A DNA stretch of 64,000 bases from a virus (taxonomy: Duplodnaviria; Caudoviricetes), in the IMG/VR virus record IMGVR_UViG_3300020577_006105; one strand, 5' to 3'. Position numbers and translations under genes: made by a program. The notes under the pieces were generated by a model. That model saw only the letters and a list, made by a program, of their open reading frames with translations, ran no database searches and was not told where the DNA came from. Position 1 is the first letter of the stretch. Every line of letters begins with the position of its first letter. This document shows, piece after piece, positions 31,469 to 32,956 of this stretch.

Positions 31469-31490
31469 AGATTTGACGAGGAAAAGGACA

Positions 31491-31514
31491 ATGGAGGACA
31501 ACGACAATAATTAG
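31491..31514 (+). CDS. Mini-ORF MEDNDNN upstream of the tRNA-Asn pair
   Basis: GAGGAAAAGGACA-ATG GAG GAC AAC GAC AAT AAT TAG. Confidence 0.65.
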   Translation: MEDNDNN

Positions 31515-31561
31515 CGCGAAGGCGTGCCACTTGATGTGACGCGCTGGAGCGCGAACATCAA

Positions 31562-31637
31562 GGCTCGTGAGCAAGCTGGTAGTTGCAGACGTCTGTTAAA
31601 CGGAAAGGGCTGGGGTCAGAACCCAGGCGGGCCTCCA
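31562..31637 (+). tRNA. trnN: tRNA-Asn(GTT), atypical
   Basis: GGCTCGT/GCGGGCC acceptor, GCAA/TTGC D stem, loop CTGTTAA, CTGGG/CCCAG T stem, T-CCA end; non-canonical G8, G14, T loop GTCAGAA, T73, only 3 WC pairs in the anticodon stem. Confidence 0.7.
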
Positions 31638-31690
31638 AAATTTCGAACTCATACAGAGGTATGGTTAACTTTTTTGGTTAACAAACACTT

Positions 31691-32239
31691 ATGAGTGCAA
31701 GTAAAACACACAAGGTTGTGTCATGGAGAAGAAGGGTAAAAAGATTGCTGATTGAGTACAAAGGTGGAAAATGTATCCAATGTGGTTACGAAGAAGATTG
31801 TCCGCCAGCATATGCATTTCATCATCGAGACCCGAATCAAAAAGACTTGACCATTAGTGGAAAATCATGGTCTTATGAAAGACTTAAAGCAGAAGCAGAT
31901 AAATGTGACTTGTTGTGTGTAAGATGTCATACAGAACTACATTACAAATGGCAAGCAACAAAAGACGACAACAAATGGGAGAAGCACAAGAAAAAGTCAC
32001 CTCAAGAAAAGCAAATTAAGTTATTGTTGATATCGGCTTGCGAAACTTGCAACAAGCAATACAAGCCAAAAAACAAAGGACAAAAATATTGCTGTGCGGA
32101 GTGTTATAGAATCGCAAGCAGAAAATGCGAAAGACCCACGAAAGAGATTTTGATTAACCAATTGAGGTCTATGAGTGTCTCAGCAGTTGGAAGACTCTAC
32201 GGGGTATCAGACAACGCAATTAGGAAATGGCTAAACTGA
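31691..32239 (+). CDS. HNH endonuclease with C-terminal Zn finger and HTH
   Basis: CIQCGY..AFHHRDPNQKD..CDLLCVRCHTELH; CETC..KYCCAEC; SVSAVGRLYGVSDNAIRKW. Confidence 0.85.
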   Translation: MSASKTHKVVSWRRRVKRLLIEYKGGKCIQCGYEEDCPPAYAFHHRDPNQKDLTISGKSWSYERLKAEADKCDLLCVRCHTELHYKWQATKDDNKWEKHKKKSPQEKQIKLLLISACETCNKQYKPKNKGQKYCCAECYRIASRKCERPTKEILINQLRSMSVSAVGRLYGVSDNAIRKWLN

Positions 32240-32241
32240 AC

Positions 32242-32315
32242 TGGCATGTATTTCAACGGTAGAATAATGGACTGTTACTCCATGGATGGTGGTTCGAATC
32301 CACCCGTGCCAGCCA
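32242..32315 (+). tRNA. trnN: tRNA-Asn(GTT)
   Basis: TGGCATG/CGTGCCA acceptor, G73, CCA; ATGGA-CTGTTAC-TCCAT; GGTGG-TTCGAAT-CCACC. Confidence 0.85.
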
Positions 32316-32340
32316 ATTTTGTAGTTAGGAAAGAAAGACA

Positions 32341-32490
32341 ATGGACGACCATCATCATACACAACTGAATAACATGGCGGTCGGACCCAGAAGGCGAGGG
32401 GGTTTGGCTGTGAACCAAATCACTAGGGGGCTCGATACCCCTCGGTCGCCCCAAGTTTTGAACACCGCGCGAGGTGTGGCCATAGCTTAA
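32341..32490 (+). CDS. Mini-ORF MDDHHHTQLNN..., reading through tRNA-His-1 into tRNA-His-2 (49 codons)
   Basis: AGGAAAGAAAGACA-ATG GAC GAC CAT CAT CAT ACA CAA CTG AAT AAC...; first in-frame stop TAA at 32488-32490. Confidence 0.6.
   Translation: MDDHHHTQLNNMAVGPRRRGGLAVNQITRGLDTPRSPQVLNTARGVAIA
32376..32453 (+). tRNA. trnH: tRNA-His(GTG), atypical, with encoded G-1
   Basis: GGCGGTCG/CGGTCGCC 8-bp acceptor plus CCA; TTTGG-CTGTGAA-CCAAA; GGGGG-CTCGATA-CCCCT; G8, G14, C54. Confidence 0.8.
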
Positions 32491-32549
32491 TCGGTTAAAG
32501 CGTCTGGTTGTGGCCCAGAAGATTGAGGATTCGAGTTCCTTTGGTCACC
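32476..32549 (+). tRNA. trnH: tRNA-His(GTG)
   Basis: GTGGCCA/TGGTCAC acceptor, C73; GCTT/AAGC D stem; TCTGG-TTGTGGC-CCAGA; GAGGA-TTCGAGT-TCCTT; G-1 and terminal A not encoded. Confidence 0.85.
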
Positions 32550-32568
32550 CCTGGCGCAGACAGTTTAT

Positions 32569-32863
32569 ATCGACGTAGTGTAATTTTGACAATAGGAGGA
32601 ATGAAAAGTTAGAGAAAGTTGAACACGAAAACATCAAGAAATCCAGCATGAACGCCCAAATATCATGCTTGCAGGCTTTAGAAACGTTGAGCTGGTTGAA
32701 CGCCAGACAGGTTTGGTCCGGATTGTTGGTGAGTATGAAGTGTGAGTAAGGTTCGGTGAGTACATAACCCAGTAGTGAATTTGACGATAGATAGGTAACA
32801 CGCGCCCATAGCATGCAAGCATTGGAGGGCGTACTGTAGGTTCGAGTCCTGCCGTTGATACCA
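32569..32863 (+). ncRNA. Interrupted tRNA-like RNA (about 200-nt D-loop insert, expanded anticodon loop; tmRNA-like topology possible)
   Basis: ATCGACG (32569-75) pairs with CGTTGAT then A-CCA; GTAGG-TTCGAGT-CCTGC T arm; GTGT (32578-81) pairs with ACAC (32798-801); CGCCC/GGGCG stem with a 19-nt loop. Confidence 0.6.
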
Positions 32864-32869
32864 AATTTC

Positions 32870-32884
32870 AGAGAGAGAGAGAGA
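32870..32884 (+). repeat. (AG)n dinucleotide run upstream of the Tyr mini-ORF
   Basis: agagagagagagaga. Confidence 0.85.
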
Positions 32885-32890
32885 AAGACA

Positions 32891-32956
32891 ATGGAAAGTG
32901 ACTATAACTATACAATCGGGGGTGTTGGGGCGACTGGTTGCCCTACCAGGCTGTAA
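32891..32956 (+). CDS. Mini-ORF MESDYNYTIGGVGATGCPTRL overlapping tRNA-Tyr-1
   Basis: GAGAAAGACA-ATG GAA AGT GAC TAT AAC TAT...; stop TAA (32954-56) overlaps the GTA anticodon (32953-55). Confidence 0.6.
   Translation: MESDYNYTIGGVGATGCPTRL

Follow-up and report, generated by a model that had tools for sequence, protein, structure and literature searches.

We describe three very short open reading frames, referred to below as mini-ORFs (ORF1 to ORF3), in a 64,000-nt (64 kb) stretch of phage DNA from IMG/VR record IMGVR_UViG_3300020577_006105. This whole stretch is called the window, and coordinates given without a prefix refer to it; L and G numbers denote loci and genomes of relatives. Each mini-ORF lies within an RNA island, ahead of a tRNA gene, and carries putative regulatory codons cognate to that product: Asn codons before tRNA(GTT), His codons before tRNA(GTG) and Tyr codons before tRNA(GTA). 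As judged from sequence comparison, they are most likely genuine leader frames, read by ribosomes within a polycistronic pre-tRNA transcript. For the further proposal, that they are translated sensors of their cognate codons and would gate folding or processing of the pre-tRNA by the position of the ribosome, we consider the chances evenly balanced.

Mini-ORF1 (31491–31514, + strand; MEDNDNN*) reads ATG GAG GAC AAC GAC AAT AAT TAG, with three Asn codons, and is preceded by a purine-rich, Shine–Dalgarno (SD)-like tract (31476–31490, +), in which GAGG lies 9 nt before the ATG and predicted pairing to the anti-SD sequence reaches −5.9 kcal/mol. Mini-ORF2 (MDDHHHTQLNNM..., 49 codons; 32341–32490, +; leader part 32341–32375) likewise follows a purine-rich tract (32328–32340, +; purine fraction 0.8, anti-SD −4.2 kcal/mol), and its frame traverses a non-canonical tRNA-His gene before reaching a stop codon (32488–32490) in the D-loop of the canonical tRNA-His. 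Mini-ORF3 (MESDYNYTIGG...; 32891–32956, +) begins after a run of GA repeats (32869–32890, +) with a purine fraction of 0.95; a fraction of 0.9 is reached before only 0.1% of the ATGs in the window. From its leader (32891–32917) it enters tRNA-Tyr, where its TAA stop (32954–32956) overlaps the GTA anticodon (32953–32955) and lies on U35-A36-A37 of the tRNA. NAY codons account for 5 of 6 codons in ORF1, 7 of 10 in ORF2 and 4 of 8 in ORF3. An earlier reading of this DNA (the original prediction) had put frames at ATGs 31491, 32341 and 32891, and all three are open as placed, each behind a purine run and ahead of tRNA(GTT), tRNA(GTG) and tRNA(GTA), respectively.

Codon runs of this kind are rare after ATGs in the window. 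Among 2699 ATGs, at least three Asn codons within the next six follow only 5, at least three His codons follow 7, and at least two Tyr codons follow 37, each tally including the mini-ORFs themselves. Because of this rarity, the threefold match between codons and next tRNA, which the original prediction had called unlikely by chance, is not due to chance, even with several candidate ATGs per leader. The prediction had also described a header shared by the three frames. Within the window this is borne out, since AAAGACAATGGA (one mismatch at most) occurs at the three mini-ORF sites only (shuffle mean 0.63; three occurrences reached in 3 of 100 shuffles), but relatives keep just a purine-rich tract and not the exact motif. 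Nor did the header prove to be a tRNA-linked motif elsewhere: the 14-mer AGAAAGACAATGGA gave at least 115 single matches in IMG/VR, none of them within 300 nt of a tRNA.

At the sequence level, start codon and ribosome-binding signals are in place in all lineages compared, in the form of an ATG behind a purine-rich, SD-like tract. The 20 nt before the mini-ORF ATGs vary in sequence among relatives, with purine fractions of 0.55–0.95 against a mean of 0.505 for all ATGs in the window, and predicted anti-SD pairing of −2.7 to −7.2 kcal/mol. By comparison, the starts of the 37 large ORFs of the window mostly lack SD pairing (mean −2.5 kcal/mol, versus −2.0 kcal/mol for all ATGs), and many of them have A-rich leaders. 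By SD match, the leader ORFs of the island rank with the better starts of the window.

The window comes from a very large phage, whose closest catalogued relative, G001, is a complete IMG/VR genome of 478,840 bp with terminal repeats; proteins neighbouring the island are 89–93% identical between the two. Seven further lineages were reached through the neighbouring and Ro60 proteins: L119 (part of G001), L157, L163, L170, L171, L172 and L175. Across lineages, neighbouring proteins are 70–99% and Ro60 proteins 56–99% identical. The islands of L119, L157 and L163 are near-identical to that of the window, despite only 70–74% identity in a flanking protein of 158 amino acids (aa), while Ro60 identity to the window's protein is 71–78% in L170, L171 and L172 and 56% in L175. 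The promoter, an upstream leader frame (ORF0) with its terminator, and the mini-ORFs are kept in all seven further lineages, with the exception of ORF2 in L171. Searches with the 158-aa neighbour in IMG/VR and with an alignment of the 542-aa neighbour in JGI metagenomes returned no matches, and in two phages with tRNAs and a Ro60 of about 50% identity (L117, L118) no such mini-ORFs were found. L171 is a syntenic copy of the phage region on a 1,363,254-bp contig of GCA_018268375.1, a metagenome-assembled genome labelled Armatimonadetes; this contig may represent a giant phage that was integrated into, or binned together with, that genome, or it may point to the host. L178 is another contig of the same assembly (G002).

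The frames themselves have changed among these relatives in a characteristic manner. ORF1 occurs as MEDNDNN*, MEESDNN*, MEDDNNNN*, MEEGNNI* and MEDDNKK*, ending in TAG, TGA or TAA at the same position. ORF2 occurs as MDDHHHT-QLNN-M, MEDHHHSEQLNIASHM, MDDHHHSGQLNTENHM and MDDHHHSRQLNTNM, and ORF3 as MESDYNYT(I/T/N), MESDYSYTN, MESDYTN, MESDYTY and MKDDYNYQS. Synonymous changes include GAC to GAT and CAT to CAC (ORF2 of L175), AAT/AAC exchanges (ORF1), TAT to TAC (L171), AGT to AGC (L170) and ACA to ACT (L163), and differences in length come in threes (+3 nt in ORF1, +6 and +12 nt in ORF2, −6 nt in ORF3). In almost all lineages each frame uses most often the codon of the very next tRNA, so that the concordance between codons and anticodon, proposed at the outset as a test in homologues, survives in diverged relatives. 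A translated frame under selection for its codons would be expected to keep its ATG, reading frame, stop and cognate codons while its initiation tract varies and synonymous changes accumulate, and this is the pattern seen.

Two of the three frames are also tied to predicted RNA structures that a ribosome would remodel, in line with the original prediction. The 50-nt stretch from the ORF1 stop to the tRNA is far more structured than shuffled sequences (z = −4.8 in the window and −3.2 in L170) and folds in two mutually exclusive ways of nearly equal energy. Hairpin A (31514–31552, +) has a 5′ arm that starts at the last base of the ORF1 stop codon, and hairpin B (31530–31562, +; −24.9 kcal/mol), which excludes it, ends on position +1 of the next tRNA. 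In all eight lineages an equivalent of hairpin A starts no more than a few bases from the ORF1 stop, and hairpin B is present in seven of the eight, with stem sequences that differ between clades (for instance CGCGC/GCGCG versus CCGCC/GGCGG); hairpin B was judged from constrained folds of each sequence, since MAFFT misaligns the diverged stems. When the footprint of a ribosome at the ORF1 stop is masked, hairpin B becomes the predicted fold in seven of eight lineages, and with masking for a ribosome at the first NAY codon hairpin A stays in most of them. In ORF2, an anti-acceptor hairpin (32346–32383, +) is formed by codons 2–5 (32346–32355), which pair with 32374–32383, that is, with positions −3 to +7 of the non-canonical tRNA-His. 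This pairing was found in each of the four clades with an ORF2: it comprises 9 bp with one mismatch in the clade of the window and a perfect 9–10 bp in L170 and L172, and is seen in L175 as well. The ORF3 leader is less structured than shuffles (z = +1.5), as expected of an initiation region, and has no alternative hairpins; a candidate GTGAC/GTCAC pairing of this leader with the 3′ side of tRNA-Tyr was discarded, not being kept in L170.

From the frames, their conservation and the structures positioned against them, we infer translation of the mini-ORFs, the direction of its effect and RNase P as the step affected. A single promoter would drive transcription of the island, with ORF0 and its terminator acting as a leader-peptide attenuator at the upstream end, and each module would then be a local sensor of the speed at which NAY codons are decoded, chiefly the codon of the tRNA just downstream. 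At ORF1, a ribosome that has reached the stop would cover the 5′ arm of hairpin A, leaving hairpin B to form flush with the 5′ end of the tRNA; with the ribosome held at the early Asp/Asn codons, or absent, hairpin A would form instead. Bacterial RNase P favours an unpaired leader, and in the hairpin A state the last 8–10 leader bases would be single-stranded, the form this enzyme should prefer. At ORF2, the Asp-His-His codons would double as a 5′ hairpin arm and keep the 5′ acceptor strand of the next tRNA-His paired. With a ribosome stalled on these codons, the acceptor strand would be released and this tRNA could fold, while a ribosome running on would unwind the non-canonical tRNA-His and the start of the canonical one. 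ORF3 would involve no switch, its frame simply running into tRNA-Tyr up to the anticodon. The net logic would be that slow decoding of a codon yields more of the matching mature tRNA. In a broader and more tentative reading, which we think possible though rather doubtful, a frame translated in the pre-tRNA transcript would determine folding of the adjacent tRNA and its cutting by RNase P separately for each species, and so provide product feedback for each phage tRNA; with this ribosome-gated maturation, the NAY attenuator, the non-canonical tRNAs and Ro60, the island would form an inducible counter-measure to the loss of GUN-anticodon tRNAs. It would in that case sense when such host tRNAs are being lost, an anticodon nuclease being one possible cause, and supply substitutes.

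A number of observations weigh against sensors of this type. The cognate codons erode: ORF1 of L175 has one Asn and two Lys codons, ORF3 of L172 has one Tyr codon, ORF1 of L163 has lost one Asn and one Asp, and ORF2 is absent from L171, whose single tRNA-His is of another type. The RNAalifold consensus of hairpin A contains three wobble-compatible one-sided changes and zero double compensatory ones, and the anti-acceptor hairpin of ORF2 is weak statistically (z = −1.3 in the window, not significant, and −2.3) and shows no covariation. Because the island hardly differs among four of the eight lineages, the comparison amounts to about four effectively independent clades. The rules of initiation in this phage are uncertain, since most of its genes lack an SD sequence, and processing of the pre-tRNA may outpace ribosome loading. 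Frames of this kind are missing from about 60 other tRNAs of G001, a tRNA-Gln cluster being the exception. In an unrelated tRNA-rich phage, a tRNA-His-like gene of similar non-canonical type (L192:185–270; loop CTGTGAA, T-loop GCGTTAC) is likewise without a mini-ORF. Finally, each frame mixes Asp, Asn and other NAY codons, so that specificity for one tRNA species is at most putative. The isoacceptor-specific control put forward in the original prediction is thus supported in part, as far as conserved, translatable-looking leaders with the cognate codon as the commonest are concerned, and is weakened by this mixing and by the relatives that retain a single cognate codon.

The same mixture of codons would be natural if the frames were translated without being species-specific, as extra general NAY-codon sensors extending the upstream attenuator. 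Acting for example through ribosome–RNA polymerase coupling, or by blocking Rho or RNases along the island, they would have the whole island expressed when GUN-anticodon tRNAs are scarce, for instance after an anticodon nuclease attack. Consistent with this, every mini-ORF starts with M-(E/D) and contains Asp plus other NAY codons, the upstream ORF0 is NAY-rich as well, GAC occurs in all three frames yet tRNA-Asp is not in the island, and ORF1 of L175 retains two Asp codons and one Asn. Among the tRNA clusters examined in G001, moreover, this Ro60-adjacent island is the only one with ARAGORN calls for Asn, His and Tyr tRNAs. We nonetheless regard general sensing as unlikely: it does not account for the agreement of the commonest codon with the very next tRNA, and the structures differ by module and involve the 5′ end of the adjacent tRNA, which argues for local outputs.

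Two further explanations dispense with the ribosome. The leaders could be untranslated elements of the pre-tRNA (spacers, processing signals, or hairpins that promote or oppose folding), with their codon-like appearance a by-product. In the four closest lineages the mini-ORFs are base-identical, with zero synonymous change; the His codons of ORF2 exactly complement the tRNA acceptor strand; the next tRNA ends in ...CCUCCA(U) at its 3′ side, with which the AUGGAGG start of ORF1 can pair; and hairpins A and B could switch without a ribosome. Slippage at triplet or hexamer repeats could also yield the in-frame insertions and deletions, which is likewise a caveat to the case for selection on the frames. 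An untranslated role leaves unexplained, however, why three leaders each bear the codon of the following tRNA, why the ATG is conserved behind a variable purine tract and the stop position fixed while the stop codon changes, why synonymous changes fall outside paired bases, why the unstructured ORF3 leader still keeps D-Y-x-Y, and why a parallel Gln-run ORF precedes tRNA-Gln genes (see below); we therefore judge it quite improbable. Less probable by far, in our assessment, is ribosome-free pairing of codon and anticodon in the manner of a T-box specifier, in cis with the downstream tRNA or in trans with a host tRNA, which would guide folding, modification or processing. The codons are by definition complementary to the downstream anticodons, and T-box-like pairing could occur between UGGA at the start of ORF1 and the terminal UCCA of the non-canonical tRNA(GTT). 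Against this, complementarity between leader and anticodon loop extends over at most 3 nt (by eye), which leaves the cis-pairing alternative of the original prediction with support no longer than three bases; the discriminator bases of the His and Tyr tRNAs mismatch UGGA; and no conserved scaffold surrounds the codons, the ORF3 leader being unstructured. No T-box or other riboswitch model matched even at E values up to 10 (T-box: no hit in 30500–34000 at this level, and none at gathering score in the window). Separately, Hfq-type A-R-N repeats were considered by eye as an explanation of the leaders and set aside as a misfit with the His and Tyr runs.

The frames are part of an island with a compact layout, situated between the 158-aa gene and a gene for Ro60 (TROVE plus vWA). 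The sole strong promoter upstream of the island is of sigma-70 type (31228–31256, +; TTGACA, 17 nt, TATAAT; 12/12 consensus) and is conserved in relatives. ORF0 (31296–31409, +; MRFSL..., 37 codons, 12 of them NAY), the upstream first layer, is an SD-led frame in 7 of 7 tabulated lineages and in L175. Between it and mini-ORF1 lies a strong intrinsic terminator (31431–31470, +; 14-bp stem and T run), and an Rfam Thr_leader match spans this ORF0 terminator only. On the + strand from 31000 to 34300 it is, as 31431–31463, the only terminator, upstream of all mini-ORFs, with none after any of them. A possible internal promoter in the header (TTGACG) was rejected, as it has no −10 box at a usable distance and did not appear in the promoter scan.

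Downstream of ORF1 lies a tRNA-like gene with an Asn anticodon (31562–31637, +; loop CTGTTAA, T-loop GTCAGAA, encoded CCA; identified by eye), followed by the canonical tRNA-Asn (GTT) (32242–32315, +; ARAGORN, Rfam 63.3 bits). ORF2 is followed by a tRNA-His-like gene (32376–32453, +; G-1:C73, loop CTGTGAA, T-loop CTCGATA, encoded CCA; by eye) and the canonical tRNA-His (GTG) (32476–32551, +; ARAGORN, Rfam 64.1 bits), and ORF3 by two copies of tRNA-Tyr (GTA) at 32918–33004 and 33019–33105 (both +, ARAGORN). In L119 and L171 the ORF3 leader is joined straight to a tRNA-Tyr of the second-copy type. The first members of the Asn and His pairs are non-canonical, with G8 and altered T loops, and neither 31562–31637 nor 32376–32453 was called by ARAGORN or Rfam in the window, where the former has two mismatches in the anticodon stem. 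This stem is fully paired in the L119 counterpart, equivalents were called tRNA-Asn in L163, L170, L171, L172 and L175, and the L157 copy of the non-canonical tRNA-His has a compensatory change in the T-stem. Since diverged equivalents are called tRNA-Asn or tRNA-His or show compensatory stem changes, we take both pairs to be real. The tRNA pairs of the original prediction thus hold as two Asn and two His tRNAs, with the qualification that the first of each is non-canonical and the Asn pair is split by an HNH-like ORF (31691–32239, +). The insertion separates the two tRNA(GTT) genes and does not belong to the control element; it is absent from L119, L163, L170, L171, L172 and L175, where the two tRNAs are 3–4 nt apart.

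Other features of the island vary among relatives. L163 has a quite different, 87-nt tRNA(GTT) at the site equivalent to 31562–31637, and in L157 the first HNH-like ORF occupies the place of the canonical tRNA-Asn and extends, in a different frame, over the ORF2 header. A second HNH-like or zinc-ribbon ORF lies among the tRNA genes at 33166–33690; L119 is without both inserted ORFs. Between the tRNA-His and tRNA-Tyr genes, 32569–32863 encodes a tRNA-shaped RNA of about 295 nt with an acceptor-like stem (ATCGACG/CGTTGAT), a T arm and an encoded CCA, which is kept with compensatory stem changes in L157, L163 and L172, is absent from L119, L170, L171 and L175, and was called by neither ARAGORN nor Rfam. 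No transfer-messenger RNA (tmRNA) was found by ARAGORN, and Rfam tmRNA hits on the Tyr tRNAs scored 17.8–27.4 bits against a cut-off of 47. The Ro60/Rsr orthologue (TROVE plus vWA; 34159–35781) is preceded by a structured intergenic stretch, conserved in relatives, that could hold Y RNAs and in which no Rfam family reached gathering score (the region noted, stretch plus gene, is 33700–35781). A bacterial-looking contig (L174) encodes a Ro60 68% identical to that of the phage. The genes of the window are open under the standard code, with TGA as stop in 16, TAA in 15 and TAG in 6, and G001 carries suppressor-like tRNAs with anticodons CTA and TCA (L150:11229–11304 and L154:869–943).

The tRNA-Gln cluster mentioned above provides what looks like a separate cognate-codon leader, and an independent parallel to the mini-ORFs. 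Its leader is an SD-led ORF of 33–35 codons ending in ...QQQQQ(Q)..VA* (L153:1100–1400, minus strand, in G001; L178:1250–1440 in G002), about 80–110 nt upstream of 3–4 tandem tRNA-Gln genes, and the choice between CAA and CAG differs between G001 and G002. No terminator was evident by eye in these Gln-run leaders. As an independent anchor, we also searched metagenomes and IMG/VR with a pattern taken from inside the non-canonical tRNA-His. The 11 matches in metagenomes, lacking tRNA-like flanks, did not resemble this tRNA; in IMG/VR, one further phage was found, on two contigs (L192, L193), with its tRNA-His-like gene located directly after a protein gene.

If the sensor proposal is correct, giant phages would gauge decoding capacity for individual codons and replenish single tRNA species as needed, translation could directly gate the folding of a non-coding RNA, and the phage would possess natural, compact devices that sense how much of a tRNA is available. 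The proposal would also touch on the reason why phages carry tRNAs at all, be it codon supply or replacement after attack by defence nucleases. The hypothesis is testable with simple constructs. A literature search returned no account of leader peptides controlling tRNA genes, nor of a reading frame entering a tRNA.

Sensing by leader peptides is textbook knowledge for amino-acid operons. The pheM leader of pheST encodes a peptide that responds to how well charged or how abundant one tRNA species is, and controls a synthetase gene by terminator read-through. Like pheM, each mini-ORF would report on one tRNA species and control a component of the same decoding step; unlike pheM, it would control the tRNA gene itself and not a synthetase gene. 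In the ermC and cat leaders, a functional site downstream of a short ORF is hidden in a hairpin until a ribosome stalling in that ORF opens it up. The logic proposed for ORF2 is similar, with a stall opening a hairpin over a site just downstream, but what would be sequestered is a tRNA acceptor strand and not a ribosome-binding site, which the downstream tRNAs do not have, and the stall signal would be shortage of a tRNA rather than a drug, as opposed to the translation-attenuation leader of erm (described in PMC5118997).

Supply of tRNAs by phages has a known use, namely the replacement of host tRNAs destroyed by defence nucleases, as with T5 tRNA-Tyr against retron-Eco7 PtuAB and tRNA-Lys against PrrC (PMC11555353). 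The island resembles these phages in having extra copies of particular tRNAs, Tyr included, and a phage that supplies extra tRNAs has a plausible reason to sense their shortage. It differs in its candidate sensors, as expression in the phages of PMC11555353 relies on a strong promoter and a sensing element is not described there.

The closest comparison is with the transcription attenuators governed by the leader peptides trpL, hisL, pheL, thrL and ilvL, whose principle is reviewed in PMC1183508. As in trpL and hisL, a short SD-led ORF contains a run of codons cognate to the product, and ORF1 is followed by predicted alternative hairpins, the choice between which would be set by the position of the ribosome; ORF2 has a single, weakly supported hairpin and ORF3 none. 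Unlike those attenuators, the regulated product here would be a tRNA and not an enzyme, two of the mini-ORFs have no stop before the tRNA and enter it, and no intrinsic terminator follows any of them, for which reason the mini-ORFs are not classical attenuators. ORF0 and the Gln leader apply the same principle of a cognate-codon test frame before phage tRNA genes. In contrast to ORF0, which has a terminator, each mini-ORF is placed ahead of a single tRNA pair within the transcript, lacks a terminator and overlaps either the tRNA itself or the hairpin at its 5′ end. What is particular to this island is a second layer within the transcript, terminator-free, with one unit per tRNA pair and in overlap with the tRNA itself.

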